From Candidatus Babeliales bacterium (GTDB lineage Bacteria; Babelota; Babeliae; Babelales; JBFXEV01), in assembly GCA_963716425.1 (NCBI GenBank), contig OY970310.1:1670807-1734806 (forward strand): DNA of 64,000 bases, in the 5' to 3' direction. The stretch's first letter is position 1. The number at the start of each line of letters is the position of its first letter. The translations under genes were made by a program, and so were the position numbers. This document shows positions 5,605 to 56,848 of this stretch, one piece after another. The notes beneath the pieces are model-generated. The model searched no databases, had not been told where the DNA came from, and saw only the letters and a program-made list of their open reading frames with translations.

Positions 5605-5613
5605 TTATCAGTA

Positions 5614-5973
5614 TTACTCAGTTTGTTTCCACTTGGCCGTATCATAGTAAAGATGAATAGCTTGAATTTTACCGCTCTTCACTTCCATCCATTCAACCGT
5701 TGGCACAGAGCCAGCAGGTGTGGAAGTGACACACTCAAGCATTGTACACACACCTGTTTCATCAGCAAATTGCTTTTTAAAATCAAAGCGTTTCATAATC
5801 ATCATAAATTGATTGAGCATTGCAATGACATTCTGTTTGCCAACAACAGCTTCATTTGGGCCAGTAATGGTAACATCATCTGCAAGTGGCAGTTTATCGA
5901 TTGCTAGTGATTTGGTTGCAAATGCCTCATTCATAATCTTGTAGTACTGTGCTACAACGTCTTTTGGATTCAT
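5614..5973 (-). CDS. NTF2-like / SnoaL-like small protein (119 aa)
   Basis: I chose the start at ATG 5973 (MNPKDVVAQYYKIMNE...) to avoid overlap with csaA. The size and the pattern ...EWMEVKSGKIQAIHLYYDT resemble SnoaL/NTF2-fold proteins. Weak call. Confidence 0.45.
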   Translation of the reverse strand: MNPKDVVAQYYKIMNEAFATKSLAIDKLPLADDVTITGPNEAVVGKQNVIAMLNQFMMIMKRFDFKKQFADETGVCTMLECVTSTPAGSVPTVEWMEVKSGKIQAIHLYYDTAKWKQTE

Positions 5974-6043
5974 AGTAGATCCTATGCGGGTTTGATAGTT
6001 CTTTTTGTCCTTGATATCGATTTTAAAACATTTTTTGACCAAG

Positions 6044-6376
6044 TTAAAATAATCTACCGCCAATTGGCACGTGCCGCTCCGGCTGCACGAGCACTACATT
6101 TTTGTCTGCATCCGGCACACCCAGCGTGAGCACTTCAGAAATAAAAGGCCCAATTTGGCGTGGTGGGAAATTAACCACGCACATAACCAATTTACCCATT
6201 AAATCTTGTTTGGTGTAATGCTTTGTTATTTGTGCTGAAGATCGCTTGGTGCCAATAGGTTCGCCAAAATCAATGGTCAATTTATAGGATGGCTTGCGAG
6301 CTTCAGGAAAATCATCAACTGCAATAATTTTGCCTACACGAATATCTAAATTATCAAAATCTTGTATGGTTGCCAT
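6044..6376 (-). CDS. csaA: tRNA-binding domain protein CsaA
   Basis: MATIQDFDNLDIRVGKIIAVDDFPEARKPSYKLTIDFGE...GKLVMCVVNFPPRQIGPFISEVLTLG matches the CsaA/Trbp111 OB-fold pattern. ATG at 6376 is preceded by AGAGGA. Confidence 0.8.
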   Translation of the reverse strand: MATIQDFDNLDIRVGKIIAVDDFPEARKPSYKLTIDFGEPIGTKRSSAQITKHYTKQDLMGKLVMCVVNFPPRQIGPFISEVLTLGVPDADKNVVLVQPERHVPIGGRLF

Positions 6377-6786
6377 GCAACATCCTCTGATGCTTGATTT
6401 TATCAAACATTAATTAATATAATAAAACTAATTGGATACTAAAAAAATTGTAGCTAATAGATTAGCTGGGGAATATGGGAGAGGGGATGGGGGATTGGGG
6501 CATTTTGAAAGAACCTAAACAGGCACTTATATGATAGAAATAAGAAAGAGAAGCCATAATAACTCCTAAAGGGTTAGTGTAAAACCATAAAACTAATATT
6601 ATTATACCCAAAATGAGGTTTTTAACAATGGGAAAGCCTCTTATTCCAATGCCATAAATTAATGACCCTAATTGAAATAAAACAAGAAAAATGATATTCT
6701 TATTTGTATAAACATGTCAAAAATGAAATATAGCGCTGTTTTTTGCCTTTATTTGAGCCAAGCAGCCCAAACCGCTAAGGAATATC

Positions 6787-7923
6787 ATGAAGCGCCAAGC
6801 AGGGTATTACGAACAATTAGGGAACGTAAAACATTATATTCCTTCTCCATTGCCTCCAGAGAACCCTGCATTCCAAATAACACATGAAATTGCAGAAAAA
6901 TATGGAGCAGCGCTTAACTGGCTTGGGAAGCTTGATGAAGTTACTGATCGACTACCAAATAGTAATCGATTTCTCAAAGCTTATATTATTAAAGAGGCAG
7001 TGTTATCTTCTGAAATAGAAGGTATTCATACCACACTTTTGGATGTGTATACTCAGCCACTTACCGGCGCACGAGCAAGTAAATCAACGCAATTGGTATT
7101 GAATTATTCTAAAGCATTGGAGACGGCACTTGCAATGATGCATGATCAAGGTTTGCCACTGGCCAATCGTGTTATTTTGCGAGCGCACGAAGTGCTTATG
7201 ACTATGGGTGATAGTGCCCATGGCGATCCAGGGCATTTCCGCAAGCAATCGGTTCGAGTTGGGAATTTGATACCACCGCCAGCAAGTCTAGTTCCTGACC
7301 TTATGGCGAGCTTAGAGCAATTTATTAATGACAAACCAAATAATTCGATTGCACCTTTAATTAAAGCCGGGCTTGTGCATGTACAATTTGAGACTATTCA
7401 TCCATTTTTAGATGGCAATGGGAGAATTGGACGACTCTTGATAGTTCTGATGCTCATGGAAGATGGGTTATTACATACACCAATATTGTATCCATCATAT
7501 TTCTTTAAAAAGCATCAAATGGCCTATTATCAACATCTTGATAGAGTGCGCACTGAAGGTGACTTTGAGGGCTGGATAGTATTTTATCTTACTGCTATAG
7601 AAGAAAGTAGCCGAGATGCCTATCTACGAGCAAAAGAAATAGAAAAGTTGTATCAAAAAATGCATACAACCATTCAAGAAGATGCACTGTTTACACGAAA
7701 GCGAGAAACAGCTGCTCTTGTGCTTGCGCAATTATTTGAATATCCTGTACTATCAATTGGCCATTTGGCTGAATTGATTGGTAAAAACTATAATACTGCT
7801 CATAGCATTATTGAGGTGTTTATAGAGTTCGGCTGGCTCACTGAACAAACTGAACAGCGGCGTAATAAATTATATAGCTTCACACCATATTTAGAGTTGT
7901 TGGAAAAGGAACTAGAGGATTAA
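6787..7923 (+). CDS. Fic family protein (AMPylase-type) with N-terminal inhibitory motif and C-terminal wHTH-like region
   Basis: Canonical Fic motif HPFLDGNGRIGRLL (HxFx[DE]GNGRxxR). An upstream [ST]xxxE[GN] motif is present in LSSEIEGIHTT. SD AAGGAA upstream. Confidence 0.9.
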   Translation: MKRQAGYYEQLGNVKHYIPSPLPPENPAFQITHEIAEKYGAALNWLGKLDEVTDRLPNSNRFLKAYIIKEAVLSSEIEGIHTTLLDVYTQPLTGARASKSTQLVLNYSKALETALAMMHDQGLPLANRVILRAHEVLMTMGDSAHGDPGHFRKQSVRVGNLIPPPASLVPDLMASLEQFINDKPNNSIAPLIKAGLVHVQFETIHPFLDGNGRIGRLLIVLMLMEDGLLHTPILYPSYFFKKHQMAYYQHLDRVRTEGDFEGWIVFYLTAIEESSRDAYLRAKEIEKLYQKMHTTIQEDALFTRKRETAALVLAQLFEYPVLSIGHLAELIGKNYNTAHSIIEVFIEFGWLTEQTEQRRNKLYSFTPYLELLEKELED

Positions 7924-8303: not shown

Positions 8304-8741
8304 ATGATAAAACAATTTTTTTGCATAGGCATGATCATAAGCTTTGTATATTTTCAATGCTTAGCAATGGATAAGAAAGATCTACCACGTTATAAACAAT
8401 TTACGCTGTTGCAGCCTGCACCGCCGCCACCATCTACTCCAGAAGATATACAGGTAGATATGCGGGATACAACTCCGCCTCGAGTTATCCTGGATGCACA
8501 GGAACATATTCAAATACTTCGGCAAAGAAATACAAGTAGCTTTCAGCCTTGGGATATTCGCTTACGCATGTTAGATGACAATAGTCAGGAAGAAGAAACA
8601 TGCAGGGAAATAATGAGCCGGTGCAAATGCATTCATGCACGCACTTGCTCTTGTATTAAAGTCTGTGCTTTGGTACATTGTATGCAACCGCACTTAATGA
8701 TGCTTTATCTTATTTCATTAAAAACATATTTTAATCAGTAG
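8304..8741 (+). CDS. hypothetical exported protein with Cys-rich C-terminus (145 aa)
   Basis: Leader MIKQFFCIGMIISFVYFQCLAM-DKKD. C-terminal SRCKCIHARTCSCIKVCALVHC. Its architecture is analogous to 7924..8289. Confidence 0.5.
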   Translation: MIKQFFCIGMIISFVYFQCLAMDKKDLPRYKQFTLLQPAPPPPSTPEDIQVDMRDTTPPRVILDAQEHIQILRQRNTSSFQPWDIRLRMLDDNSQEEETCREIMSRCKCIHARTCSCIKVCALVHCMQPHLMMLYLISLKTYFNQ

Positions 8742-9035
8742 TGTATTACATTCAAAATTACTATTCTAGGCAATCCAATCCAAATGGAGGGTTATTTTAG
8801 GAATTATTAAAAAAGAATGATTTCATCATGGCAAAAATAGCGTTTTAAATTAAGGTCTTAAGGTGAATACCTTTGTCATTATAATATCTTGCAACCTAGG
8901 GCTAAATTTGATTCTTCTACGCCAAGGCTCCGGCGGACAGGCGTTCTCTGTTACAAAATCGGGTAAAAATAGATGAACGTTCTCTGATACAGTTCTTGTG
9001 CTTTTTAAAACTTGCTTTTTTTTAGATTGAGAGAA

Positions 9036-9245
9036 CTAAGACATTTTTTGAGGCGAACTAGACTGTAGGTTCCAAGCACCGTAGAGTAGGATAAAAATAA
9101 TCAGGAAGGTTAATATAAACAGTAAGACGCTTCCATGAAATCCTTCGTTGTAATACTTTTCAATGCGATTTAATTGCACAGTGGTAATTGCGCCGGCCAT
9201 AAAAATGCAAAAATTAGAAAGTAGACTTTGTTGAATTGTTTTCAT
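9036..9245 (-). CDS. small two-helix membrane protein (69 aa)
   Basis: SD GAGGAAAG upstream and two hydrophobic segments (FCIFMAGAITTV; VLLFILTFLIIFILLYGAW). Confidence 0.5.
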   Translation of the reverse strand: MKTIQQSLLSNFCIFMAGAITTVQLNRIEKYYNEGFHGSVLLFILTFLIIFILLYGAWNLQSSSPQKMS

Positions 9246-9309
9246 TTGCTTTCCTCTTCACCCTTATTGCGTGTTTACATAATATCTATTATCAGATGTT
9301 ACATAATCC

Positions 9310-9831
9310 TTACCCTTCATAGGTCAACTTAACTATTGGCATGCGCTGAGCTACGCTGCTTGCCTTAAGTTGCTTGATAAATGATTGGTACCATTGCAAT
9401 CCGCTTAAGGAAGCTGTAAGTTCAATCCATACAAAATCATAATCAAACTGATCAAAAAAATAGTCGGCAAGAACATCGGGTCTATCAAGAGATCCACTAT
9501 GCGATAAATCATGGAAAATATCTTCAACAAGCATATTGTCTGGAGTATTAAATAAGGTTAGGCAGCCAATAGAATGATAATAATGAAGAGAAGATAAGCA
9601 TGCCTCTAACACTTGCCTGCCATGCTCTACGTCTTGGACTTTTAAATAATGTATTCCATTGCATAATAAAGTATCGTTCAAATCCAGAATATCTAAATCT
9701 GAGAGCAGTTTGGGAACGCGTTTATACATTGAGGCGGACATACCAGTATGCTCACGGTCTATGGTGTTTGCATACGCACAATTCATATTTTTCATCTTGC
9801 GACCCTTCTTTTTTGGGTTTACGCTTTCCAT
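9310..9831 (-). CDS. hypothetical protein (173 aa; start uncertain)
   Basis: Long ORF with no leader. The first ATG has no SD. The internal ATG (MKNMNC...) is preceded by AAGAAGGG and may be the true start. Confidence 0.45.
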   Translation of the reverse strand: MESVNPKKKGRKMKNMNCAYANTIDREHTGMSASMYKRVPKLLSDLDILDLNDTLLCNGIHYLKVQDVEHGRQVLEACLSSLHYYHSIGCLTLFNTPDNMLVEDIFHDLSHSGSLDRPDVLADYFFDQFDYDFVWIELTASLSGLQWYQSFIKQLKASSVAQRMPIVKLTYEG

Positions 9832-14572: not shown

Positions 14573-15580
14573 GTGATCTCGTTTAATAAAATTTTTATCT
14601 TTGCCATCTTCTCTTTGTCATTACAATTTAATTACTTACATGCAATGGAGCCAGTGCTTGAGCATGAGCCATTGATTACAGAGAACGGCGCACATGATGG
14701 TTCAATAGAACTGAGAGAAGTAGCTATTGCACCCCATATTCCAGAACCAGAGATCAACATTCAAATTCCACCAAATACAATGGATGAATTTAATCCAAAG
14801 GTAATCACAGGCGCAGGTGCCGCGATGATTGTCATAGGGGCAGCATTCTTGTATTATGATCATACTCGTGTAGTGGAAACTGTCATAGGATCTTGCATAG
14901 AGGTTACCGGTGTTAGTTGTCTCATAGGTGGGCTAATAGCCCTTAAGCGAATACGCAATCGAAATAATACACTGCATACTGAATTGGTTGCTCATGCCAC
15001 GCAAACAATCAGGCAACAACTTGCAACCACCAATCGGCGTGTTCCATCAAACGCTTTGGCTGCAAAAGTATGTCATCTTATTGCTTTGGACTATACTGAA
15101 GGACTTAAGTCTCTCATTTCTAATGTTAATGACCAATCACTGTTTACTCCTCTACAAACTGCTCAGCAAAAAAAGGATACTCTCTTTGCATTGATGCGGG
15201 TATTTAAGAGAAAACATATTAGGATGCCAAAAGATATGATCTTTGCCACCATAGCACAATGCCCTGAGCTCATTCATAACCGTACATTGTTTTGCCACAC
15301 GCTACCGCTTGTTAAAGCAGCAGGTTTGCTCAAAGATGCCATCCAGCATTGTCCGCTTTCTTGGTTTAATACCTACTATCACAATCATTGCAGTAACGAG
15401 CACAAGGTAGATTTTGCCAACGATGCTGCAAGAACAGCTACTCATTTACGCATGGATACTATTTTATCGTTGGTGCCACCTTCCGCACCTTTATTTTCAC
15501 CGGAAGAAAAAAAGGATGTATTTGTAAAAACGTTTAATGCATATCATCAAGAGATTACCTGTGTTTCGGCCATCGAGTAA
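14573..15580 (+). CDS. hypothetical membrane protein carrying the ANK-family C-terminal module but no ANK repeats (335 aa)
   Basis: GTG start preceded by AAGGAA. Leader MISFNKIFIFAIFSLSLQFNYLHAM-EP. Two predicted TM helices. The C-terminal half shares motifs with ANK families in this window (FKRKHIRMPKDMIFATIAQ; CPLSWFNTYY; NDAARTATHLRMD). Confidence 0.55.
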   Translation: MISFNKIFIFAIFSLSLQFNYLHAMEPVLEHEPLITENGAHDGSIELREVAIAPHIPEPEINIQIPPNTMDEFNPKVITGAGAAMIVIGAAFLYYDHTRVVETVIGSCIEVTGVSCLIGGLIALKRIRNRNNTLHTELVAHATQTIRQQLATTNRRVPSNALAAKVCHLIALDYTEGLKSLISNVNDQSLFTPLQTAQQKKDTLFALMRVFKRKHIRMPKDMIFATIAQCPELIHNRTLFCHTLPLVKAAGLLKDAIQHCPLSWFNTYYHNHCSNEHKVDFANDAARTATHLRMDTILSLVPPSAPLFSPEEKKDVFVKTFNAYHQEITCVSAIE

Positions 15581-16606: not shown

Positions 16607-17326
16607 ATGATTAACAGTAAAATACTCATTTACATCTTCTTGAATCTTTTGTTTTTTGGTGCAAGTACGCAAGCTATGAAACAACCCAAAAAACAGGTTG
16701 GAACTTCTAAGGCAGTTAAGGCAGTTAGTGCAAGCGCTTCCTCTGTTCGTAATCAACACGATGCGCAAGGAAAAACTCCCCTTCATCGCGCGGTCATAGA
16801 GAATGATATACCAGAAATAAAAGACCTTTTGGAGCATGGAGCAAAGCTTTCTATAGAAACAAGAGCCTCCACAATAGAAGCTCCTGACTTTATGCGTAAT
16901 AAAGCTGGCTACACCGTATTTCATCTTGCCGCATGCAAACATGGTGAACATGGTATACGCATTAAAAAACTACTCTTATATTACGCACTACTGCAAAATG
17001 CTCCAGCTCTCCTTGATGCACTCAGCTCTCCCCTTTACAGTTTACAAGCATTTGCTGTAGGAATACTCCAAGAACGAGCTCTTGGCTTAAAAAAAATTTT
17101 AGAAATGCACAATGCAGAAGGAGATACTGCAGCCGAAATTGAAATAAAACGTGATGCATTTGGCAAACCATTACCCTATCATGGCGATACAGCTCTCTTT
17201 GCTGCTTTTAAAGTGAATACGGATCTAAGAGCATTTGTAACCGCAGTTCAGTATGGTACCGTTTCCCTTTTGCCAAGCACTAATATATTTAAAGCAGCGC
17301 ATGATGCTCTGCCAAAGCCACAATAA
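16607..17326 (+). CDS. ankyrin-family paralog 1 of a five-gene tandem array (239 aa)
   Basis: SD AGGGGGA. Leader ...FFGASTQAM-KQP. ANK unit DAQGKTPLHRAVIENDIPEIKDLLEHGAKL. Family motifs VFHLAA, LLLYYALL, EGDTAAEIE and NIFKAAHDALPKPQ. Confidence 0.85.
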   Translation: MINSKILIYIFLNLLFFGASTQAMKQPKKQVGTSKAVKAVSASASSVRNQHDAQGKTPLHRAVIENDIPEIKDLLEHGAKLSIETRASTIEAPDFMRNKAGYTVFHLAACKHGEHGIRIKKLLLYYALLQNAPALLDALSSPLYSLQAFAVGILQERALGLKKILEMHNAEGDTAAEIEIKRDAFGKPLPYHGDTALFAAFKVNTDLRAFVTAVQYGTVSLLPSTNIFKAAHDALPKPQ

Positions 17327-17462
17327 CTTACTCATATTCTCAATGCAGACAAAATGAGTGTTTAAATAATCTACACCTTCCCTATTTGATTGATGCATCA
17401 TATTATAAGATACTATATGTACAAGATAAGAGTACGTACATACTTTGCATCGTAAGAAAAAA

Positions 17463-18539
17463 ATGATCTCTAAGGTACTTTCACGAACATTGCTTAGTAT
17501 ACTCTGTTTATTCCTCCACACAGCACAGGCCATGGATGCAAGTACAGAGGCAGATGAGCTTGATGATAAGCTTTTTTTTGAACAGCTTAACGAGCAGCTC
17601 TATAGTGACGGCTTTGTAGAAGCTGCCCAAAATAATCATTATGCACGCGTGCAAGAATTGCTCGCACAAGGCGCTGACGTGAATGTGCAAAAGGTAGAGA
17701 GCAGACTCACGCCCTTGATTGCAGCCTGTATGCATAAAGATGATACTCTTCCATTGGTCACACTACTTTTAAACACAAAGGCGAATCCTAAACTTGCCGA
17801 CAATCGCCTAAACACCTCGCTCCATTATGCTGCAGCTCGCAACAGAGTTGCAGTACTTGAACTGCTTAAAAAAGCTGGAGCACTTCTGGATGCTCAAAAT
17901 AGCGCTGGCTCTACCGCTTGCCATCTTGCAACAGAAAGTGATGCCCTAGAAACTATTGGTTGGCTTCGTAGAGCAGGCGCACGCATGAATATGCTTGATA
18001 CAAGGGGGCAAGCACCCATTCATCAAGCCATTCTAAAGGGGAGCGTGGCCACAATCCATCAGTTACTCAATCATGGGGCAAGCTTGTATGTGGCTAGCAA
18101 CACAGCGCAAGAACCCACTGATGTTCCCGCAGGATCAACATCGTTCCACCTTGTAGCACGAAACACGAGTGAGCAAGGGCAAATTCTAAAAAATATTTTG
18201 CTCTATTACGCATTATTCTATGGATCTAAGTTTGAACAAACAGGCATCCTTGACGGGCATTCGCTCCGGGCACGAGTTGAAAGTCTAAAAGCTTTATTTA
18301 AACAAAAAGATAGTAATAATAATACGCCATATGATATTGAACAAGAGAATCACGCTTCTACTAAATCCTTTATGCCACTCTTTAAGGATACGCTGGATCT
18401 TGACATGTTTAATTTCAATGAAGCATTGCGAAAAAAATCGCTTGAAAAACTACCAAGTTCTAACTTATTCAAAGCTGCGTATGAAGCGATGCCAAAGAAG
18501 CAAGGCTGGGGATCATACTTCCTTGGGTGGTTATGGTAG
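17463..18539 (+). CDS. ankyrin-family paralog 2 (358 aa)
   Basis: I prefer the ATG at 17463 to the TTG at 17445. Leader MISKVLSRTLLSILCLFLHTAQAM-DA. ANK units LNTSLHYAAARNRVAVLELLKKAGALLDAQNSAGSTACHLA. Family motifs ILLYYALFYG and NLFKAAYEAMPKKQ. Confidence 0.85.
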   Translation: MISKVLSRTLLSILCLFLHTAQAMDASTEADELDDKLFFEQLNEQLYSDGFVEAAQNNHYARVQELLAQGADVNVQKVESRLTPLIAACMHKDDTLPLVTLLLNTKANPKLADNRLNTSLHYAAARNRVAVLELLKKAGALLDAQNSAGSTACHLATESDALETIGWLRRAGARMNMLDTRGQAPIHQAILKGSVATIHQLLNHGASLYVASNTAQEPTDVPAGSTSFHLVARNTSEQGQILKNILLYYALFYGSKFEQTGILDGHSLRARVESLKALFKQKDSNNNTPYDIEQENHASTKSFMPLFKDTLDLDMFNFNEALRKKSLEKLPSSNLFKAAYEAMPKKQGWGSYFLGWLW

Positions 18540-18621
18540 CTAGCTTACGCAAAATAGAAATCTGTATTACGCTCATTATGCCTAAACATAACACACTCTC
18601 TCAAACTCAGTTAGGATTGGT

Positions 18622-19953
18622 ATGGTACTCAACAAAATTCCTATTTTTGCTCTTTTCTTGCTTCCTACACATTATTATGCCATGCATAACATTTTAGCAG
18701 AAACTAGTTCAACTTTAGATCAAGAAAAAATCAATAAGGGTCTTCGTTTTTTTGCTTCTGTAAACGACTTGGCAATGGCTCAAATCTATTTAGATAATGG
18801 TGCACAAGTTAATGCTCAAGATTCACATGGACAAACTGCATTGCATGCTGCGCTGGATGATAATTCCCTGAGAGAGACACCTGACTTACAATTTTTTATA
18901 AATTCTCGCCATATTCCCTCTCACAAAGAAGACTTGGTTGCCTTGTTGCTTGCTTGGAAAGCAGACGCTAATCTAAGAGATAACACACATCACACACCCA
19001 TGCACTATGCTGCAATGTACAATCGTATCCATGCCCTTGAATTACTTAAAAAAGCAAACGGTAACCTCAATGCACTCGATGACCTAGACAGCACTCCTTG
19101 TCATAGAGCTGTGATGCACAATAGATTGGAGGCTATTGCTTGGCTTGGAGATGCTGGTGCACATATGAATATAATCGATCAGACTGGCATGTCACCACTT
19201 CATGCTGCAGTACACTGTGAACAGCTACAAATTGTTGATCAACTTTTAAGACATGGTGCTCAGCTTGATGTTATAACTGAAAGCAATACAGTAGAAGATG
19301 CTCCAGAATCAACGATCGTCCCCGCACGCTCAACGGTTTTTCATTTAGCAGCAAATAATTCTGAAAAAAATGCATTTTCTATGCAACGCCTCCTTTTATA
19401 TCATGGGTTATTGCACCCAAAAGATACACCTTTATTGCCTAAAGCTCTCATAACGTTCTGGTGTTGCATGCAGCAAGCACATCCTGCATTGTATAATAAG
19501 GAACGGGCAAATCTTAAGCCCGTATTGATGCCTTACTTTATGCAAAGCCTTTCGCCCACAACAGTAGTACAGTTTCTAAGTTCACCAAACGATACTGCGC
19601 GTACTGCGACACACACCATGCTGCAAAAACGTCTTGATTTTGTAAGTATGATAGTAGCTGCGGCTGATGAGCATGGAGATACTGCATACAAACTTGAATG
19701 TCATGATAAAGCGCGAACTCATAGTTATTCCCCTTGCACGTTACTTCTACCCACACTCTATAATGAGCAACTCAAACAATTTGCTGAAGCGGCCAGAGCC
19801 AATACCATCGCACAACTACCACCAGACAATGTATTAAAAGTTGCGTACGAGCTAGTCTTAGAACGGAATGCACCACCCTCATGGCTCCAGAATATTGCTT
19901 CAACTACTGAGTCTTGGGTTTCACGGTCAGTTCAAAAATGCGTTATTTGTTAA
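18622..19953 (+). CDS. ankyrin-family paralog 3, ends in CaaX box CVIC (443 aa)
   Basis: Leader MVLNKIPIFALFLLPTHYYAM-HN. ANK units THHTPMHYAAMYNRIHALELLKKANGNLNA and DQTGMSPLHAAVHCEQLQIVDQLLRHGAQL. The C-terminal codons TGC GTT ATT TGT TAA sit at 19939-19953. Confidence 0.9.
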   Translation: MVLNKIPIFALFLLPTHYYAMHNILAETSSTLDQEKINKGLRFFASVNDLAMAQIYLDNGAQVNAQDSHGQTALHAALDDNSLRETPDLQFFINSRHIPSHKEDLVALLLAWKADANLRDNTHHTPMHYAAMYNRIHALELLKKANGNLNALDDLDSTPCHRAVMHNRLEAIAWLGDAGAHMNIIDQTGMSPLHAAVHCEQLQIVDQLLRHGAQLDVITESNTVEDAPESTIVPARSTVFHLAANNSEKNAFSMQRLLLYHGLLHPKDTPLLPKALITFWCCMQQAHPALYNKERANLKPVLMPYFMQSLSPTTVVQFLSSPNDTARTATHTMLQKRLDFVSMIVAAADEHGDTAYKLECHDKARTHSYSPCTLLLPTLYNEQLKQFAEAARANTIAQLPPDNVLKVAYELVLERNAPPSWLQNIASTTESWVSRSVQKCVIC

Positions 19954-20025
19954 TTGTGTGCTGATAATGATAAACTAAACTACACTATTTTTTATAATAT
20001 CGTGAAATTCTTAGAAGAGGATCAT

Positions 20026-21177
20026 ATGTATATTAATACCAGAACCGTTTTTATAGTAGCCAGTTTGGTCAGCTATAACAACATTACTCTTGCAATGGAA
20101 CCTGTTGACAAACCCGATGAACGAACAGCATTGTTACGGGGATCTGCTCCAACAATGCAAGCCACTCCAAGCACAGCATGGACTGAAGTATTGTTCGAAG
20201 CTGCCGGCAACAATGACCTAAAAAGCGTACAGTTGTGCCTAAAAGAAGGAGCAGATGTTAATGGTTGTAATGCAGGTAATGATACTGCATTGATTATGGC
20301 TTGCATGGCTCAAGGTAATACTCTGCCACTGATTACTTTTCTTCTTGAGCGAAAGGCTGATGTTACTCATGCCAATGAGCACGGCTTTACCCCTTTGCAT
20401 CTTGCCGTATCACGTTCAGGTTTTAATCTTGCAGTTTTAGAACTACTTAAAAATGCTGGTGCAAACCTTAATGCGCAAACCCTCAAAGGATATACTCCCT
20501 GCTACTCTGCTGTGACATGGAATGCACTCTATGGGAATACACTTAATGGGATTAAATGGTTACATAACAATGGTGCCGATATGAACAGTATTGATAAGTA
20601 TGGTGGCGCCCCTATCCATTGGGCAATCTTTGGTGAAGATACCGCAACCGTTCATCAACTCCTTGCACATGGGGGGCAACTTGATATCAAAACCCAGCCG
20701 CCAACTATCGCCCCAGAGAGAATACAACTTCCCGTGGCAACAGGTGGCACACCATTTCATTTGGCTGCATATTATGATCTAGTTGCCATCAAAAAACTGT
20801 TACTCTTTCATGCGCTCTTCTTTGATGCTTGGAATAAGCAACCTGTAACAGTGAGCTTTCTAGATATGCTTGATTCTCCCATTTTAGAAACACGCAACAG
20901 CGCTAGAGCTCTTTTACAAAGACGTGCTGCAAAATTATGCGCAATATTGAACATGCAAGACAGTGCGCATAATACTGCGGGTACTATCGAATCAAACAAA
21001 CACGTAGGCGATGCTTCCAAAGTATATTTTAAGCCCCATAACATGCAAGCTGATCTGATTAATTATCTGTTTGCATTAGAGGCTGCTTCCACTGATAAAC
21101 TCCCTGATACTAATATGTTTAAAGCTGCCCAAGATGCCAAAGATGAACAAACACCTACATCTTGCACTATTTGTTGA
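20026..21177 (+). CDS. ankyrin-family paralog 4, ends in CaaX box CTIC (383 aa)
   Basis: ATG 20026 is preceded by AGAAGAGGA; the track start at 19954 is TTG. Leader MYINTRTVFIVASLVSYNNITLAM-EP. ANK units NEHGFTPLHLAVSR and DKYGGAPIHWAIFGEDTATVHQLLAHGGQL. The terminal codons TGC ACT ATT TGT TGA sit at 21163-21177. Confidence 0.9.
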   Translation: MYINTRTVFIVASLVSYNNITLAMEPVDKPDERTALLRGSAPTMQATPSTAWTEVLFEAAGNNDLKSVQLCLKEGADVNGCNAGNDTALIMACMAQGNTLPLITFLLERKADVTHANEHGFTPLHLAVSRSGFNLAVLELLKNAGANLNAQTLKGYTPCYSAVTWNALYGNTLNGIKWLHNNGADMNSIDKYGGAPIHWAIFGEDTATVHQLLAHGGQLDIKTQPPTIAPERIQLPVATGGTPFHLAAYYDLVAIKKLLLFHALFFDAWNKQPVTVSFLDMLDSPILETRNSARALLQRRAAKLCAILNMQDSAHNTAGTIESNKHVGDASKVYFKPHNMQADLINYLFALEAASTDKLPDTNMFKAAQDAKDEQTPTSCTIC

Positions 21178-21209
21178 ACAACATTATAGACTGGAACGGA
21201 CAAAGAAAA

Positions 21210-22640
21210 ATGCGTTATGTATTAACTAATTTATTTTACATTATCATGCATGTGCAACTTGTGCATGCAATGGACACAGCAATGGTTGCAATAGATCAAC
21301 CGATAGAGTCTGGAGAAGAACATCTTAATCGCATTAATAATGAATTTATCGAGATCCTTGACACTCTTTTCTATTGCCCTATAAGAAAAATGCAAAGATC
21401 AAAGATTGTAGGTAATGCGGCTACTATTACTAATCTAAAAAGCTTATTAAAGCAGGGTGCTCACGTTGGTACTCTTAACTTTGATAATCGAACTTCTCTT
21501 ATTGAAGTGTGTGACAAACTACCATCTTCTTTTGAAAATAACTTGCAATACCAATTAATTGAACTCCTGCTTACGTTTAGGGCAAATCCTGGGTACCGGG
21601 ATGCATTTGGTAAATCAGCAATAGAATATGCTGCAGCCCGTAATAATCCTGCTGCAATCCAACAATTGGTCAATGCTGGCGCAAGCGTGTGTGGCACATC
21701 TCATATTACACCCTGCCACTTTGCATGTTATCATGATGCTACGAAAGCTCTTGGCTTATTACTTTCACAGGGTGCATCCTGTAATGATATTGATTATTCT
21801 GGCAGAGCACCAATACATTATGCATTAGAAAAAGGTTGGAGAACAGAAGAGCTTTCTCTACTTTTAGAACATGGTGCAAATCTTGATACTCAATTTGAGG
21901 GAAAGCGAACAAGTGACCCAACAATTAAAATTGATATTCATCCTAACCCACCTTTTAGTAGCTTGGTACGTGGCTCCTCCCCCTTTCACCAGTCGGCACA
22001 ATTATATAGACACTTTAGAAAAAATTGTGATATTTTTGTTCGAGTACCCACTGCTCATATAAAAAAGTTATTACTATATCATGCTCTTTTCTATGGCACT
22101 ACCGATGTCCAAAGCATGTTTACCTTTTTGTGCTGCATTAGAAGGTTGTCGGCCCCACTGTATGGTCTGTGTAACTCATTGCTCATTCCACGCTTCAAAT
22201 TACAACCACACCTAGTACGCTCTATGCACTCTTCAAACAACTATGATATCAGAAAAATTGCTGCTCAAGCCCTTATCTATCGCACACAGAAATTACAGCT
22301 AATACTTAATTTATGCGACGTCAATGGTAACACTGCTCATGATATTGAACTTTTATATTGCCCTGATTTTGAAGAAGATGTTGAGCAGGTTAAAGAGCAT
22401 CCAGATCTGAAAATTGAAGCCACAAAGGTTCTGAATCCAAAATCACTTGTGCTTGATTGTGAGGCTTTTTGCCAAGCAATACCTACCGGCACCCTAGAAA
22501 GCTTGTCTGAAACGAATCCTTATAAAGCTGCTTGGTCACTTATGCCAACCGAGTCAGAGTCACAGCCTTTACCAGAACCTACGGGACAGGCTGCGCAAAC
22601 GCCAGTAAAAGATTCAAATGAAAAATGCGTTGTTTGTTAA
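21210..22640 (+). CDS. ankyrin-family paralog 5, ends in CaaX box CVVC (476 aa)
   Basis: I prefer the ATG at 21210 to the TTG at 21162. Leader MRYVLTNLFYIIMHVQLVHAM-DT. ANK unit DYSGRAPIHYALEKGW...LLLEHGANL. Family motifs LLLYHALFYG and NPYKAAWSLMP. C-terminus ...SNEKCVVC. Confidence 0.9.
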   Translation: MRYVLTNLFYIIMHVQLVHAMDTAMVAIDQPIESGEEHLNRINNEFIEILDTLFYCPIRKMQRSKIVGNAATITNLKSLLKQGAHVGTLNFDNRTSLIEVCDKLPSSFENNLQYQLIELLLTFRANPGYRDAFGKSAIEYAAARNNPAAIQQLVNAGASVCGTSHITPCHFACYHDATKALGLLLSQGASCNDIDYSGRAPIHYALEKGWRTEELSLLLEHGANLDTQFEGKRTSDPTIKIDIHPNPPFSSLVRGSSPFHQSAQLYRHFRKNCDIFVRVPTAHIKKLLLYHALFYGTTDVQSMFTFLCCIRRLSAPLYGLCNSLLIPRFKLQPHLVRSMHSSNNYDIRKIAAQALIYRTQKLQLILNLCDVNGNTAHDIELLYCPDFEEDVEQVKEHPDLKIEATKVLNPKSLVLDCEAFCQAIPTGTLESLSETNPYKAAWSLMPTESESQPLPEPTGQAAQTPVKDSNEKCVVC

Positions 22641-27704: not shown

Positions 27705-28124
27705 TTATGCGACAACATTGGTTGTAGAGATTTCTGATGATTCTTCAAAAATTATTTTTTTACCCTCCAGCAGCTGTGCAGTAACTTGCACGGTACTAGA
27801 ATTAATCCCCTTAAATATAAGTAAAGATGTATAATTTGCAAAATGAGGTATCCCAAACGTATATGATGTAATAGGCATAGTTATGGTTCCCTGTTCTTTA
27901 ATATGTGAGAGCAATGAAGAAAAATCAGTTTTGCATGCATGTATCCCGCAATTAAGCAACCCGCGCACAGCCCATTTTTTTTGCATGTACAGTTGTTTTT
28001 GCACAGAAATATCAACTACATAGGCAGTCGATCGCCACATGCGCGTGCATAGAGCCAATACTATGCTCATGAGCATTACGACAAGAAGCATCATTGATCC
28101 TGTTTGTAAAGCAGTACGTTTCAT
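27705..28124 (-). CDS. minor pseudopilin, GspK/PilX-like (139 aa)
   Basis: N-terminus MKRTALQTG-SMMLLVVMLMSIVLAL has a Gly followed by a hydrophobic helix without Glu5, as in GspK-type minor pilins. ATGA-type overlap with the upstream pseudopilin gene. Confidence 0.6.
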   Translation of the reverse strand: MKRTALQTGSMMLLVVMLMSIVLALCTRMWRSTAYVVDISVQKQLYMQKKWAVRGLLNCGIHACKTDFSSLLSHIKEQGTITMPITSYTFGIPHFANYTSLLIFKGINSSTVQVTAQLLEGKKIIFEESSEISTTNVVA

Positions 28125-28630
28125 AGCGTTATATTCGATTTCAAAGAAACCGCTCGTTTACATTGATATATCTTACCGCTTCTTAACCGGCCGTTGAGTG
28201 CAATGGTAAATGCCGCTACATTCTTATTTTCATAATGCGGTGCATAATGTACCGTCTCAACGTCCTCTAATGCAATATGTGTGACTGGTCGCTTCCATTG
28301 TTGGTGACGGGGAGCATATTTTTGCATAGTCCGTTTTAACGCTCCTCCATCAAGCTTCCAACCTATGCGCACATCACCCTGCTGCCAAGCAAGCTGATCT
28401 TGAAGAATAGTACGCCAATCGGTAACGATGGTCGGCGCATGTTCAAGATCGTAGGCGATCGCATCAAGTGCTGCGTGTAGTGAGGCAATACGATCAGTTT
28501 CATGCGTTGTCGCCCGTAATCGTAACGTGGTGCCATAAATATAGCGCATAACAAATAAACCCATGCATGCACTAAGTGCCAAGTAGAGTAAAAACTCAGA
28601 CACAAAAAAACCAGGTTGCTTGTTCTTCAT
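28121..28630 (-). CDS. type IV pilin-like / T2SS minor pseudopilin (169 aa)
   Basis: Prepilin peptidase motif KQPG-FFVSEFLLYLALSACMGLFV: cleavage Gly, Phe+1, Glu+5, then a hydrophobic helix. 4-nt overlaps with both neighbours. Confidence 0.75.
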   Translation of the reverse strand: MKNKQPGFFVSEFLLYLALSACMGLFVMRYIYGTTLRLRATTHETDRIASLHAALDAIAYDLEHAPTIVTDWRTILQDQLAWQQGDVRIGWKLDGGALKRTMQKYAPRHQQWKRPVTHIALEDVETVHYAPHYENKNVAAFTIALNGRLRSGKIYQCKRAVSLKSNITL

Positions 28631-29043
28631 GACACCATCCTTAGAGTATGTTGCCTTTTACGCTCATCTTGCCAAAGAGCAGTAACTACTTTTTGTTCAA
28701 CAACAACTGGTTTGCCCACAAGAGATGAAAGCTCAAGAATCTCTTTCTTATGAATCATCACCTGAATTGTTGGCGCACTCATGCCAGCAGTATCTTTGCT
28801 ACCTTCCCCAAGTACAAATTCTGTTGCAATAAGGTCAAGAGCTTCAAAACGCTTGATTGCCTGGTGTTGCCAGTGTACACTAAGCACGTGAAATGCGGTG
28901 ACAAGGAGCAATAATACTCCCAGCACAAGAAGGCCTTGGAGTAATTCAATACAAAGGAACCCTTCCTGGGGTTTTGTGGCTCTTTGCCAAAAAAGCTGAT
29001 TTCTGGTAAAATTAATATTAGACATACTTAATGCCGTCCCCAA
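28627..29043 (-). CDS. type IV pilin-like / T2SS minor pseudopilin (138 aa; start may be ATG 29025)
   Basis: Prepilin motif PQEG-FLCIELLQGLLVLGVLLLLV (Gly, Phe+1, Glu+5). First gene of a three-gene translationally coupled operon. Confidence 0.7.
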   Translation of the reverse strand: MGTALSMSNINFTRNQLFWQRATKPQEGFLCIELLQGLLVLGVLLLLVTAFHVLSVHWQHQAIKRFEALDLIATEFVLGEGSKDTAGMSAPTIQVMIHKKEILELSSLVGKPVVVEQKVVTALWQDERKRQHTLRMVS

Positions 29044-37012: not shown

Positions 37013-37702
37013 CTATTTTCGCTTTCCTTGCCTTATATGTCCATTAGGATAAACATTGACATAATCATCTTCTGATATTTGCACATCCCAATGCGGGCCA
37101 CCGTGACCATTGGGTCCTGTTGGTATCCATATGTTCCCATCCTTATCTGGCCCTACTCCAACACCAACTACTTTTAAAACCTCTGCTACTCCAAGAGTAA
37201 TTGGCATTACTATCACAAGATTATGCACAACAATACCATCGCCAGTTACACAAAACGTATGATACTCATCAATCACCAAATCATATACTGTTGCTTCTTG
37301 AACAATTTCTCGAACATGAGAGACCACAATCTCATGCTCATAACAACTTTGCAGCAGCATACCAGGCTTAAGATCTTGTGCAGTACACCAGTTCTTTTGA
37401 AGTGGCGCATAGAATGGTTGTTTGGAGTCAGTGATAATATCAGCGTTGCTGGCATAGCCCTGCGCGTTAATATGAATAAGTTGAGTTACCTTATGAGAAA
37501 CAATATCAGTTATTGTACGTAACAAAAAATCGTCTACTTGCTCATCAAAAGTAAACACTTCATCACCAACCGCAAGCTCTTCTATAGGAATAAAGCCGTC
37601 AATTGTCTTAACTAGTGTGCCAGCAACAAACCCTGCTTGAGCATGTAGAACGATAAGAGAAAATAAATGTAAGCAGAGAATTGAAGTTTTATAAAACGAC
37701 AT
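37013..37702 (-). CDS. exported Hint (Hedgehog/intein) domain protein with a 68-aa C-terminal tail (candidate polymorphic toxin, 229 aa)
   Basis: ATG 37702 is preceded by AAGGGG; the track start at 37726 is TTG. Signal MSFYKTSILCLHLFSLIVLHAQA. Hint block A GFVAGTLVKTIDGFIPIEELAVGDEVFTF and terminal block YHTFCVTGDGIVVHN. Tail ...GPDKDGNIWIPTGPNGHGGPHWDVQISEDDYVNVYPNGHIRQGKRK. Confidence 0.75.
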   Translation of the reverse strand: MSFYKTSILCLHLFSLIVLHAQAGFVAGTLVKTIDGFIPIEELAVGDEVFTFDEQVDDFLLRTITDIVSHKVTQLIHINAQGYASNADIITDSKQPFYAPLQKNWCTAQDLKPGMLLQSCYEHEIVVSHVREIVQEATVYDLVIDEYHTFCVTGDGIVVHNLVIVMPITLGVAEVLKVVGVGVGPDKDGNIWIPTGPNGHGGPHWDVQISEDDYVNVYPNGHIRQGKRK

Positions 37703-37937
37703 AGAGTAACCCCTTTTAAGTTCCAATCACACTACTGCACAAAACACACTCAATTAAATCAGGGGTTAATTGTACTCATTTTTATAAAACTAAACAAGAG
37801 AACACACTTCTTGATACGTGGATGAATGCACAAAATGCCTATGCATGTACCAACAAAAAAGGTAAACTGAGATCGCTCACAAACAATTAATAGTATGTTC
37901 AATCATAACATAACGAACATTCTGACAGGCTACGTGC

Positions 37938-54336: not shown

Positions 54337-54648
54337 CTAAAATGTAAAATTATAATTCCCCTGATGCCGCCCAAAATACCCATCACCATAATAAGGGCGG
54401 AATGCATAGCCATAATAACTTGGTGTTTTATACGATTGATAACAACAAGATTCACAATCCAGTCCATATTCTGGCTTAGGGCACTGCCGCCGCGTACGGG
54501 GCTTTACGGCACACTTTTTTGGTGCACATATTTTTTGCGCTTCACATACTTTTTTTGATTGTGCTTGTTTAGCTTCAGATCTTGTCACATAGGTTACAAG
54601 CACTACAAGCACCAGCACCATTAATTTACTTTTATTCATGGAAAGCAC
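54337..54648 (-). CDS. small exported Lys/Cys-rich + Tyr/Gly-rich protein (103 aa)
   Basis: Signal MLSMNKSKLMVLVLVVLVTYVTRSEA. Then KKVCEAQKICAPKKCAVKPRTRRQCPKPEYGLDCESCCYQSYKTPSYYGYAFRPYYGDGYFGRHQGNY. Confidence 0.65.
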   Translation of the reverse strand: MLSMNKSKLMVLVLVVLVTYVTRSEAKQAQSKKVCEAQKICAPKKCAVKPRTRRQCPKPEYGLDCESCCYQSYKTPSYYGYAFRPYYGDGYFGRHQGNYNFTF

Positions 54649-54706
54649 CTTTTTAGCTAGTATTAATCTGTTACTCGTAATCTTTACTATTTTTCAAATT
54701 GAGGCT

Positions 54707-56071
54707 TTATCTGCGACCACCGCCATGCCCACCACCGCCTCGCATACCCCCACCTCGCATGCCGCCGCCACGCATGCCACCCATTCGCGCACCACCCATA
54801 TGAGCACCACCCATACGTGCACCACTCATACGTGCACCGGCCGGTCTTGCCATTGGTCTACTCACTGGCCTTGCTGCTGCCCGTGCGGCTGGACGCATAC
54901 CACCTGCTGGACGTGCGATTGGTCTTGCACCTGCTCCTGGATGAACACCACCTGGACGAGTTGCTCCTGGATGAACACCGCCTGGACGAGTTGCTCCTGG
55001 ATGAACGCCACCTGGACGAGTTGCTCCTGGACGAGTCGCTGCGCCTGGTCGTGTTGCTGTGCCTGGTCGTGTTGCTGTGCCTGGTCGTGTTGCTGCAGCT
55101 GCTAAACCTGCTGCTCCAAGTCCTGCGGCAGCTCCCAGCGCTGCACCTCCAAGCCGACCACCACCTGGTCTTATTCCTGCTCCACCTGCTCCTGGCCTTG
55201 TGCCTGCCCCTGGTCTTGTTCCGGCTCCACCAGCTCCTGGCCTTGTGCCAGCTCCCGGTTTTGCACCCGCGCCTGCTCCTGGTCTTGCACCCGGACGAAC
55301 GCCGGGTCTTCCACTAGGTCTTCCGCCGGGTCTACCACCACGATTCCAGTTGCGATTAAAATTTCCTCGATTCCATGGGCGTCCCCAATTATTCCACCAC
55401 CATGAACCCCAACCAAAGCCCCAACCCCAAAAGAGTGGCCACCACCACCAACTAGGGCCCCACGAAGCATAATTATAATCATAATTATCAGCATAAGAAT
55501 TATCAGCATACGAATTATCAGCGTAAGAATTATCGGTGTAAGAATTATCAACATTTGAAGTGTCATATGCAGGTGTGTCTACATATTCCGTTGTTGCAGT
55601 AGGTTCTGCATATACATCAGAAGTCGCATAGGAAGGTGTTTGGCTTGCAGATTCAGTCTGTGCATCAGTGTACTGATCATCCGAGGCCGCAGGTTGATCT
55701 TGATCGCCGCCTTGATCGCCAGTCACTAATCGTCCCTCGGCAAAAAAAGCCATTGTAGCAGGATCATCACCCATATCCATATCTTGTGCCACATCAGACG
55801 GCAAAATATCATAAGGTGCTATTGCAAAGGACGCACCTGTTTTTTGATATTCGGGAGTCATCGTTGCAACTGAAAAATCTTGTTTAAGTTTTCTAAATTG
55901 CTCAGCGGGACCCATTTTATTTCTGTCTATTACTAAAACCGCTGCTTTAGGATGACTGGTCACAAACTGATTAAAATCATTCTCAGTCTCTAAATAAGGA
56001 GTAGCAGCATGGACTGCTGCACACAGAGATGCGATAACCACGAGTTGCACAAAAATTAATGAATACTTCAT
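54707..56071 (-). CDS. exported protein: thioredoxin-like head + Asp/Tyr repeats + Trp/Gly block + long RPG/AG repeats + MRGG tail (454 aa)
   Basis: SD AAGGAA. Signal ...IASLCAAVHA. Head ETENDFNQFVTSHPKAAVLVID...ASFAIAPYD...ATMAFFAEGRLV. Then (DNSY[AT])4, SWGPSWWWWPLFWGWGFGWGSWWWNNWGRPWNRGNFNRNWNRGGRPGGRP, (ATRPGGVHPG)3 and GGMRGGGMRGGGMRGGGGHGGGRR. The competing ORFs on both strands are shadows. Confidence 0.75.
   Translation of the reverse strand: MKYSLIFVQLVVIASLCAAVHAATPYLETENDFNQFVTSHPKAAVLVIDRNKMGPAEQFRKLKQDFSVATMTPEYQKTGASFAIAPYDILPSDVAQDMDMGDDPATMAFFAEGRLVTGDQGGDQDQPAASDDQYTDAQTESASQTPSYATSDVYAEPTATTEYVDTPAYDTSNVDNSYTDNSYADNSYADNSYADNYDYNYASWGPSWWWWPLFWGWGFGWGSWWWNNWGRPWNRGNFNRNWNRGGRPGGRPSGRPGVRPGARPGAGAGAKPGAGTRPGAGGAGTRPGAGTRPGAGGAGIRPGGGRLGGAALGAAAGLGAAGLAAAATRPGTATRPGTATRPGAATRPGATRPGGVHPGATRPGGVHPGATRPGGVHPGAGARPIARPAGGMRPAARAAARPVSRPMARPAGARMSGARMGGAHMGGARMGGMRGGGMRGGGMRGGGGHGGGRR
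54934..55089 (-). repeat. tandem coding repeats: 3 x 30 nt (54934-55023, plus a partial unit) followed by 3 x 18 nt (55036-55089)
   Basis: The units CTCCTGGATGAACACCACCTGGACGAGTTG and TTGCTGTGCCTGGTCGTG, read directly, encode GVHPGATRPG and TATRPG repeats. Confidence 0.9.
55484..55550 (-). repeat. 4.5 x 15-nt tandem coding repeat (DNSY[AT])
   Basis: ATTATCAGCATAAGA-type units at 55484, 55499, 55514 and 55529. Confidence 0.9.
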
Positions 56072-56092
56072 GATATTTCCTTATAACGTTTT

Positions 56093-56848
56093 CTAAATTC
56101 CAAATCCAAATCCTACTCCACCGCGTCGACCTCCAAAGCCAAACCCTATGCCAACACCGGGTCCATAACCATACCCATAGGGATAACCGTAACCACCATA
56201 AACATATGGTTCTACATACACAGGAGAATAACTTCTTCTATATACTGGCTGTTCTACATATCGCGATACTGGCTGCTCTACATATCGTGATACTGGCTGC
56301 TCTACATATCGTGTAGCGGTTCTTGGTTCTTGGACAGCATATTGTTGTGCCCGAGCTTGCGATTGCTGTAGTTGATAGGCAATATAATCACCCAAATACT
56401 TCTCTATAAAAGTTCCTAGATCAGCTTGATCAAATGCATTCTTGAGCATAGCCAACCCTCCTGAGTCATCTTGGACTGGTTTTCCATTCTTCAATAAAAA
56501 TACGATTGAAAAATCTGTACTTGTATCAGTCCTAGGCACATTATGCTGCTTTTCAATATCTACTATCAAATCTGGTACAGTGCGTGAATTAGTACCAATA
56601 AAAGAAATTCTTGAAAGCACATAGGCAGACTCGTTTGAAGACTGATTAAATGCAGTTTTCATTGATTCAAGTGCTTGTTGCTTTAATTTATCGTCACCAA
56701 CTTGTTCATAATTAATATAATGAACAACAGCATAAGGATGGCGCGAGAGTCCTTCAAAAAATTCGCTTTTACCTTCTGGTACATATATTTTTGCGCCAAG
56801 GCCACCAGTGAGCATCAATAGGTTCATAAGTATATATAACCGCTTCAT
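56093..56848 (-). CDS. exported protein: thioredoxin-like head + VSRYVEQP repeats + Tyr/Gly tail (251 aa)
   Basis: SD AAAGGAGAG. Signal MKRLYILMNLLMLTGGLGA. Head PEGKSEFFEGLSRHPYAVVHYIN...RISFIGTNS...FSIVFLLKNGKPV...LGTFIEKYL. Tail YVEPYVYGGYGYPYGYGYGPGVGIGFGFGGRRGGVGFGFGI. Confidence 0.75.
   Translation of the reverse strand: MKRLYILMNLLMLTGGLGAKIYVPEGKSEFFEGLSRHPYAVVHYINYEQVGDDKLKQQALESMKTAFNQSSNESAYVLSRISFIGTNSRTVPDLIVDIEKQHNVPRTDTSTDFSIVFLLKNGKPVQDDSGGLAMLKNAFDQADLGTFIEKYLGDYIAYQLQQSQARAQQYAVQEPRTATRYVEQPVSRYVEQPVSRYVEQPVYRRSYSPVYVEPYVYGGYGYPYGYGYGPGVGIGFGFGGRRGGVGFGFGI
56242..56313 (-). repeat. 3 x 24-nt tandem coding repeat (VSRYVEQP)
   Basis: Units at 56242-56265, 56266-56289 and 56290-56313 (ATACTGGCTG[TC]TCTACATATCG[CT]G). 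Confidence 0.9.

Follow-up and report, generated by a model that had tools for sequence, protein, structure and literature searches.

The ankyrin-repeat effector AnkB of Legionella pneumophila (AA100/130b) ends in the CaaX box 169-CVLC, in which a cysteine is followed by the residues a1, a2 and X. This box is farnesylated by the host farnesyltransferase (FTase) and is needed for vacuole anchoring, function, and intracellular growth (PMC2916131). The localisation of BAP-4CaaX, an in-frame fusion of the last four residues of AnkB, depended on host FTase (PMC2916131), and seven more Legionella CaaX effectors behave like AnkB (PMC13081727). Here we describe a 64,000-nucleotide stretch of DNA from a Candidatus Babeliales bacterium (assembly GCA_963716425.1, contig OY970310.1, positions 1,670,807 to 1,734,806 of the forward strand), hereafter the window, in which five ankyrin genes lie in tandem on the + strand (16607 to 22640) and three of them end in CaaX boxes. 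It is probable that these proteins and their boxed relatives are secreted Babeliales ankyrin effectors which are prenylated by the host.

Host prenylation of bacterial effectors is already known; the protein family, the phylum for this mechanism and the signal-peptide delivery route are new. For example, the Salmonella effector SifA is delivered by a type III secretion system (T3SS) and is host-prenylated at a C-terminal Cys motif, being geranylgeranylated and S-acylated. It is alike in its lipidation by a host prenyltransferase at a C-terminal Cys, and unlike in its unrelated fold and its T3SS delivery. AnkB is alike as an ankyrin-repeat effector of an amoeba parasite with a CaaC-type end. 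The analogy with AnkB, first drawn in an earlier model-made annotation of this DNA (the sequence-only reading), is supported by the host farnesylation of CVLC, with the proviso that delivery differs, by a Sec signal here and by Dot/Icm in Legionella (PMC2916131). AnkB itself has about 170 amino acids (aa), an F-box at its N-terminus and two ankyrin repeats, and is injected through Dot/Icm, a type IV secretion system (T4SS), whereas the window family has 290-480 aa, a Sec-type signal, four to six repeats, an orphan helical domain and no F-box. The likeness is limited to generic ankyrin repeats, and the resemblance is one of convergent design and not of homology. Similarly, the Legionella Pel/CaaX-motif proteins (PelA-K) comprise several CaaX-ended effectors in one genome, but they are mutually unrelated T4SS substrates of Gammaproteobacteria, whereas the Babeliales boxes belong to a single paralogous family with signal peptides. 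Eukaryotic Ras/Rho C-termini follow the same order, with a folded domain, then an unconserved flexible linker, and at the end a canonical box whose a2 is Ile or Val. They differ in having a GTPase domain, while the window family is bacterial and, in most of its tails, there is no second signal of a polybasic or palmitoylatable kind.

The Dependentiae (TM6/Babelota) are widespread obligate protist parasites in which about 10% of the genes encode signal-peptide ankyrins, whose action in the host has been assumed and never shown. Cultured members are obligate intracellular parasites of amoebae and flagellates (PMC4378268, PMC6561590, PMC4776705), and most of their ankyrins bear signal peptides, with secretion into the host presumed (PMC4378268, PMC6561590). 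Babela massiliensis has 126 ankyrin proteins, 79 of them with signal peptides (PMC4378268), and Chromulinavorax destructans has 98, 78% with signal peptides (PMC6561590); these repertoires resemble the window family in phylum, in N-terminal signal peptides and in presumed secretion to the host. The word 'prenyl' does not occur in the Chromulinavorax destructans paper (PMC6561590), and 'CaaX' was absent from the papers listed with the terms Dependentiae, TM6 or Babela. As a prenylation box is meaningful only in the eukaryotic cytosol, it turns the assumption of host action into a directly testable prediction, and it singles out a handful of specific effectors that are predicted to sit on host membranes. 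If this is true, CaaX mimicry would reach from Legionella and Salmonella to a distant phylum and a new secretion route, and the box would be a built-in proof that Dependentiae signal-peptide ankyrins act within the host cytosol. The family would then need a way of passing from the periplasm or the vacuole into the cytosol, in a phylum whose only system is a type II secretion system (T2SS).

Tandem ankyrin genes and their C-terminal boxes

The five paralogues share 29-34% pairwise identity, and Pfam ankyrin repeats are found in all of them. The genes and their C-terminal features are as follows.

16607..17326, + strand: paralogue 1, 239 aa; signal-like N-terminus, one clear ankyrin repeat, family C-terminal domain (C-domain)
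17463..18539, + strand: paralogue 2, 358 aa; basic and Trp-rich hydrophobic tail KKQGWGSYFLGWLW; no CaaX box
18622..19953, + strand: paralogue 3 (P0001), 443 aa; ends QKCVIC before the stop
19846..19938, + strand: variable linker of P0001, between the conserved NVLKVA motif and the box; low AlphaFold2 (AF2) confidence, unconserved among orthologues
19939..19950, + strand: CaaX box C-V-I-C of P0001, TGC GTT ATT TGT, stop codon immediately after
20026..21177, + strand: paralogue 4 (P0121), 383 aa; architecture as P0001; short 15-residue tail; ends TSCTIC before the stop
21163-21174, + strand: CaaX box codons (CTIC) of P0121
21210..22640, + strand: paralogue 5 (P0123), 476 aa; architecture as P0001; 35-residue P/T/E/Q-rich tail; ends EKCVVC before the stop
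22626-22637, + strand: CaaX box codons (CVVC) of P0123

The reading frames and box codons of the three consecutive paralogues ending in CVIC, CTIC and CVVC were confirmed in the DNA, as was the earlier statement that the upstream genes 16607 and 17463 lack the box. The 16607 protein ends ..ALPKPQ, 3 residues past LPxxNxFKAAxxxxP, and belongs to a tail-less class; members of this orthologous class (P0126 at 74% identity, P0131, P0135, P0138, P0144) have an identical stop point. The 17463 protein ends ..GWGSYFLGWLW (tail core 18504-18536), and its Trp-rich type of tail is also found in the orthologue at the related locus L003 (178-576; ..GWGSYLIRWISWK) and in P0142 (..KALSWFW). Both genes fall into separate conserved tail classes, and the possibility that they are decayed copies was ruled out. 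A 335-aa open reading frame (ORF) at 14573-15580 was considered as a sixth, decayed member and was rejected (hhalign probability 0.1%). This ORF has a signal peptide, lies between the genes for an M49 peptidase and GDPD, ends ..ITCVSAIE, and is absent from the syntenic locus L004. Downstream of the P0123 gene lies a convergent dnaB.

All five paralogues begin with a basic/hydrophobic segment, which closes with [AGS]-M-[EDKQ] near residue 20-23; ankyrin repeats, four to six in number, a helical C-domain and a tail follow. In P0001 these are signal-like residues 1-20 (18622-18681), the ankyrin repeats, the C-domain at about 234-408, and a 35-residue tail with CVIC. The repeats of the three box genes match Ank_2 of Pfam (1.7e-20, 5.3e-23, and 2.7e-19), and the family-specific helical domain (..FHLAA..KKLLLYHALF..) closes with LPxxNxFKAAY. 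In the AF2 model made with the family alignment, P0001 is all-helical, with a predicted local distance difference test score (pLDDT) of 85 and a predicted template modelling score (pTM) of 0.81. Confidence drops along the tail, where the last 5 residues are below 50. The top Foldseek matches of the repeat part were DARPins and ankyrins. Modelled alone, the C-domain reached a pLDDT of 84; no Pfam or NCBIfam family matched it, and it had no sequence relative in the PDB and no Foldseek match in the PDB or BFVD. As such it is an orphan domain. No Pfam match to F-box, PRANC or SOCS was obtained in the full proteins or in 20 C-domains, even at E <= 5, and no NCBIfam family cut-off was reached, the only matches being sub-threshold ones of the ankyrin region to other Legionella Ank models. 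Within an insertion restricted to the P0001-type and P0123-type subfamilies there is also a conserved helix, F-[TW]-[FL]-[WL]-C-C-[IML]-x-[RQ], with a Cys-Cys pair (FWCC at 19456-19467, FLCC at 22125-22136); that this pair is palmitoylated is pure speculation.

Chance does not account for the box. Of the 56 window ORFs that do not overlap and are 120 aa or longer, 3 have Cys at position -4, exactly the three box genes. The window composition (Cys 1.55%) predicts about 0.003 per protein for a loose CaaX end and 0.0007 for C-[VILMFT]-[VI]-X. The box is absent from the other ankyrin genes in the window (at least 12 in total) and at related loci, and none of 118 unrelated ankyrin matches has a Cxxx end. 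No canonical box was found in about 110 non-family ORFs from the source genome and related genomes, among which Cys at -4 was seen in one likely spurious ORF and in two ends of the form WGKFC[MV]SV in proteins that resemble outer-membrane proteins (OMPs). These two ends were rejected as chance, their paralogues having Val or Gly at the Cys position. The OMP-like paralogues stand in tandem at the related loci L008 (17247-19707) and L009 (13241-18503), with ends ..NTAL(N/S/T)RWLVW(G/A)K(F/V)[C/V/G][M/V/I]S[V/I], and served as a negative control for the CaaX count. The earlier proposal had been that the box is a non-chance feature of one tandem family. Chance is indeed no explanation, but the box is not confined to the array, as CaaX members occur at at least two further loci of the same genome lineage and relatives hold them in synteny.

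Conservation of the box and fit to prenyltransferase rules

The C-domain profile used to retrieve the family was built without tails, so that the box could not bias retrieval, and was run with HMMER against 1.84 billion representative proteins. It returned 21 proteins with E < 1e-10 plus a few weaker matches, about 23 members in all, of which 14 have CaaX ends: CVIC (seven), CVVC (two), CTIC, CFIC, CIIC, CMIL, and CVIY. A further CVIC member, a 404-aa gene, adjoins P0137 in L008, bringing the boxed members to 15 of about 24. The consensus over these 15 is C-[VTFIM]-[IV]-[C/L/Y], mostly CVIC. CIIC is the box of yeast Ras1, and the end MCCVIC of P0129 resembles the Cys-Cys-a-a-X arrangement of yeast Ras. 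The box-less members form two conserved classes, which either stop right after FKAA (16607 type) or carry the basic Trp-rich tail (17463 type). All members come from a narrow group of Babeliales-type bacteria and share the N-terminal signal type. A word-indexed protein search with the C-domain alignment returned 6 already-known members and none new, a whole-protein search was dominated by generic eukaryotic ankyrins, and a single-protein scan of GTDB representative genomes found no relative.

Relatives hold the boxed genes at comparable positions. In GCA_050179755.1 ('Candidatus Babeliales bacterium'), the syntenic locus runs through RuvC, Ank, the M49 peptidase, GDPD, three family genes, DnaB and L9, and the flanking DnaB and M49 peptidase are 92% and 77% identical to those of the window, which places the source within the Babeliales of the phylum Dependentiae (TM6). 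At a second syntenic locus (T2SS ATPase .. BamD .. CdsA .. family gene .. HisRS), one genome has CVVC and CVIC and the other CVIC, and at a third locus P0128 ends in CVIC. Between window members and relatives, the boxes persist or vary conservatively at low overall identity: 44% for P0001 (CVIC) and P0134 (CVIY), 54% for P0001 and P0002 (CFIC), 51% for P0121 (CTIC) and P0127 (CVIC), 45% for P0123 (CVVC) and P0129 (CVIC), and 58% for P0123 and P0130 (CIIC). When each of eight pairs of closest relatives (orthologues or members of one subfamily) is compared, identity reaches 78% over the final 4 residues and only 23% over the 11 before them. Anchored at the C-terminus, positions -4 to -1 carry 5.5, 3.0, 3.7, and 4.6 bits of information, compared with 2.5 bits at -5 (K7, S3, N3, C1) and about 1-1.9 bits further upstream. 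The tail from FKAA to Cys varies from 15 to 48 residues and is unalignable between subfamilies, and synonymous codons are found within the box (TGC/TGT, GTT/GTG, ATT/ATA). Because the linker has diverged while the box and the stop position have been kept, with synonymous changes inside the box, selection appears to act on the terminal box and not on the linker.

The DNA of the box can also serve as the start of the next gene. Read one base later, '..A AAA TGC GTT ATT TGT TAA' becomes 'ATG CGT TAT TTG TTA A' (MRYLL), and the CaaX-coding 3' end, out of frame by one base, thereby supplies the ATG and five initial codons (MRYLL, MRDLL or MLYLL) for the signal peptide of the following gene. Live 16-nt overlaps are present at L004 8001-8016, L004 9290-9305, and L003 1498-1513, and those in L004 and L003 join P0001-type to P0123-type genes. 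The third gene of L003 has its true start at 1498 and not at the called 1558, the called version missing the signal peptide. Traces of such a junction are seen in the window.

19938..19964, + strand: relic start ATGCGTTATTTGTTAATTGTGTGCTGA (MRYLLIVC before a stop), one base out of frame across the CVIC box
21205..21225, + strand: relic tail GAAAAATGCGTTATGTATTAA (EKCVMY before a stop), out of frame across the start of paralogue 5 (ATG 21210, MRYVL)

The relic start is the remnant of the overlapped start of the gene which follows the P0001-type gene in relatives, and the relic tail resembles the tail of the L004 orthologue (..DKVKESCVIY before the stop). Insertion of the gene 20026-21177 split the ancestral tail/start junction, of which the relic tail is the second copy, and left the two relics on its sides.

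The residues of the box can be compared with the known preferences of prenyltransferases. All box members have the Cys at -4; V, T, F, I and M occur freely at a1, a2 is Ile in 12 and Val in 2 of 14 members, and no charged residue is seen at either of these positions. The last residue is Cys in 13/15, Leu in 1/15 and Tyr in 1/15, all compatible with FTase or geranylgeranyltransferase I (GGTase-I). Arabidopsis protein farnesyltransferase has low selectivity at a1 and high selectivity at a2, and appreciably farnesylates GFP-BD-CVIC in vitro (PMC3017772). CIIC is among the measured substrates of FTase and GGTase-I (PMC1175975), and Ile at a2 was one of just two positive determinants in a yeast Ras-based screen (PMC10320760). 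The yeast heat maps (cut-off 3; PMC10320760) give scores for CFIC, and for the other family boxes by way of proxies (xIC, xVC, xIY, xIL), and all of them lie over the cut-off in the high 'canonical' range.

CFIC: Ydj1 4.12, Ras 11.35
CAIC: Ydj1 3.64, Ras 16.5
CAVC: Ydj1 3.49, Ras 11.5
CAIY: Ydj1 4.50, Ras 11.3
CAIL: Ydj1 3.86, Ras 14.2

Upstream of the Cys, the prediction method PrePS requires a flexible linker of about 11 small or hydrophilic residues (PMC1175975). The family linkers conform to this extended motif in composition and in disorder predicted by AF2, with K, S, N or C at -5 and a mean hydropathy of -15..-5 below zero in 12/14 members. The family proteins are not substrates of the Rab-type geranylgeranyltransferase II, as their ends are C-x-x-C and not CC, CXC or CCXX (motif definitions in PMC1175975) and their fold is that of ankyrins and not of a GTPase. 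Overall, the substitution pattern matches the preferences of FTase/GGTase-I and Rce1. The proposal that the tandem ankyrin family carries host-type CaaX signals thus agrees with every test run at the sequence level, namely conservation of the terminus only and fit to the enzyme rules.

Proposed route to the host membrane and rival explanations

All members bear an N-terminal Sec-type signal, a feature absent from the sequence-only reading. This signal would export the protein from the bacterial cytoplasm, and the host cytosol would be reached most likely via the T2SS. There, host FTase could read the exposed box at the end of a flexible linker of 15-48 residues, or GGTase-I instead in the case of the CMIL member. 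The -aaX tripeptide would then probably be removed and the Cys methylated. The lipid would hold the ankyrin scaffold and the orphan helical domain against a host membrane on its cytosolic side, and the repeats could bind host proteins there. The T2SS is conserved and is the sole secretion system reported for Dependentiae (PMC4776705), with no T3SS or T4SS reported in the phylum (PMC4378268), and T2SS substrates of Legionella leave the vacuole and reach the host cytosol (PMC5478897). As sister subfamilies bear a Trp-rich hydrophobic tail or none, the C-terminal tail resembles an address label that can be exchanged on a shared scaffold. The Trp-rich sister tails point to membrane attachment as the tail's general function, and the basic tail rich in Trp, Phe and Leu may be a lipid-independent membrane anchor. 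It is conceivable, and to be held tentatively, that these are the first host-prenylated effectors which leave by the Sec/periplasm (type II) route and not by injection, the tail then being an interchangeable address for host membranes (a farnesyl box, a geranylgeranyl box, a Trp-rich tail or none).

Several points weigh against host prenylation. We know of no prenylated effector that uses the Sec/T2SS route, and the signals found here are of the Sec type, as opposed to T3SS or T4SS. The weakest link is how the host cytosol would be reached: a protein that transits the periplasm has to encounter an enzyme of the cytosol, and the growth of Babela within a vacuole (PMC4378268) leaves access to cytosolic FTase unexplained. 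Lipidation and translocation are both predictions from sequence. Furthermore, X is Cys in 13/15 members, which is stricter than FTase needs and leaves room for a role of the CxxC type. Most tails show no evident second signal for membranes, be it polybasic residues or a Cys close by; P0129 (MCCVIC) and the P0001 subfamily, with its Trp-rich linkers (SPSWSSWEW), are exceptions. In relatives, the ATG of the next gene overlaps two of the boxes, which adds some constraint at the DNA level, and the box census is confined to the window and about 110 non-family ORFs of the source genome and related ones.

The strict terminal Cys could alternatively belong to a C-x-x-C thiol motif that acts inside the bacterium or its periplasm as a vicinal disulfide, a redox switch or half of an intermolecular metal site, and the Sec-type signals would indeed take these proteins through an oxidising periplasm. 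However, it is the second Cys that is exchanged, for Leu in CMIL and for Tyr in CVIY and the relic CVMY, while the Cys at -4 is constant. The middle residues are confined to hydrophobic V/I, a hallmark of CaaX which redox or metal sites do not need, the motif is always exactly C-terminal behind a variable flexible linker, and a single CxxC cannot bind metal alone. A thiol role is therefore very improbable. A tag for a bacterial machine has also been considered, be it for sorting, processing or lipidation specific to Dependentiae (for instance by an intramembrane protease of the CPBP/Rce1-like type) or for secretion across the outer membrane. Conserved, short and strictly terminal motifs on exported proteins resemble several bacterial sorting tags, no T3SS or T4SS is reported in the phylum, and the bacterial CPBP proteases, whose substrates are poorly known, are homologues of the CaaX protease of eukaryotes. 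However, LPXTG, PEP-CTERM, GlyGly-CTERM, MYXO-CTERM and the C-terminal domain of the type IX secretion system all include a hydrophobic helix or a folded domain, and the family tails have neither. Many other signal-peptide proteins and ankyrins in the genome are untagged, which argues against a general export signal, and the residue preferences coincide in detail with those of eukaryotic FTase and Rce1, so that a bacterial tag is very improbable.

The box might also be a functionless inheritance, kept by common ancestry or as the start of the next gene (A-ATG-C..). The paralogues do share ancestry, and box codons in L004 and L003 overlap the downstream ATG and first five codons by 16 nt. However, at least eight box genes have no overlapping downstream gene (P0121, P0123, P0129, P0128, P0136, P0137, the L008 404-aa gene and the L009 gene). 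Shared descent also fails to explain why the linker has drifted to 23% identity and differing lengths beside a box and stop position that were kept, or why synonymous changes occur within the box. Inheritance alone is strongly disfavoured and hardly credible.

Signal-peptide proteins elsewhere in the window and at related loci

The N-terminal signal seen in the ankyrin array is common in the window. About 20 of the 56 ORFs have an N-terminal hydrophobic segment that ends in [A/G/S]-M-[E/D/K/Q] at residue 20-29, for example those at 1944, 4268(-), 7924, 8304, 10901(-), 11524(-), 14573, and 16607-21210, and further ones at 24572(-), 25284(-), 26918(-), 31611, 39536(-), 48143(-), and 49942(-). 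The Met is almost invariant just past the likely cleavage site, and the same pattern occurs in all family members from other samples. It looks like a lineage-specific c-region of the signal peptide. With regard to the secretion route, three small ORFs at 27705-29043 (-) include two with prepilin-like G|FxxxE N-termini (KQPGFFVSEF, PQEGFLCIEL). The ORF at 27705-28124 has a weak GspK-like match, the NCBIfam pseudopilin hints being sub-threshold (GspK E 0.021; HpsB E 0.038). These ORFs are probably minor pilins of a T2SS or a type IV pilus.

Directly upstream of the CaaX genes of the second syntenic locus there are runs of small paralogues (L008 2775-8268 and 13397-13846; L009 5912-9561). They carry this same signal peptide, with a hydrophobic helix at the C-terminus (..DPVTL..hydrophobic..K/H..), which may be a different way of anchoring secreted proteins. 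Signal-peptide proteins with Pretoxin-HINT are encoded at 37013-37726 (-) in the window and at 5611-7380 and 8729-9508 of locus L006, the window copy also having Ntox37. These genes look polymorphic-toxin-like, and one Pretoxin-HINT pair adjoins the CaaX member P0128. Lastly, the region 52912-56848 (-) has a G+C content of 0.47 compared with about 0.40, and encodes signal-peptide proteins with low-complexity ends rich in Gly, Tyr and Ser (..MRGGGGHGGGRR, ..GVGFGFGI) together with long Cys-rich antisense shadow ORFs.

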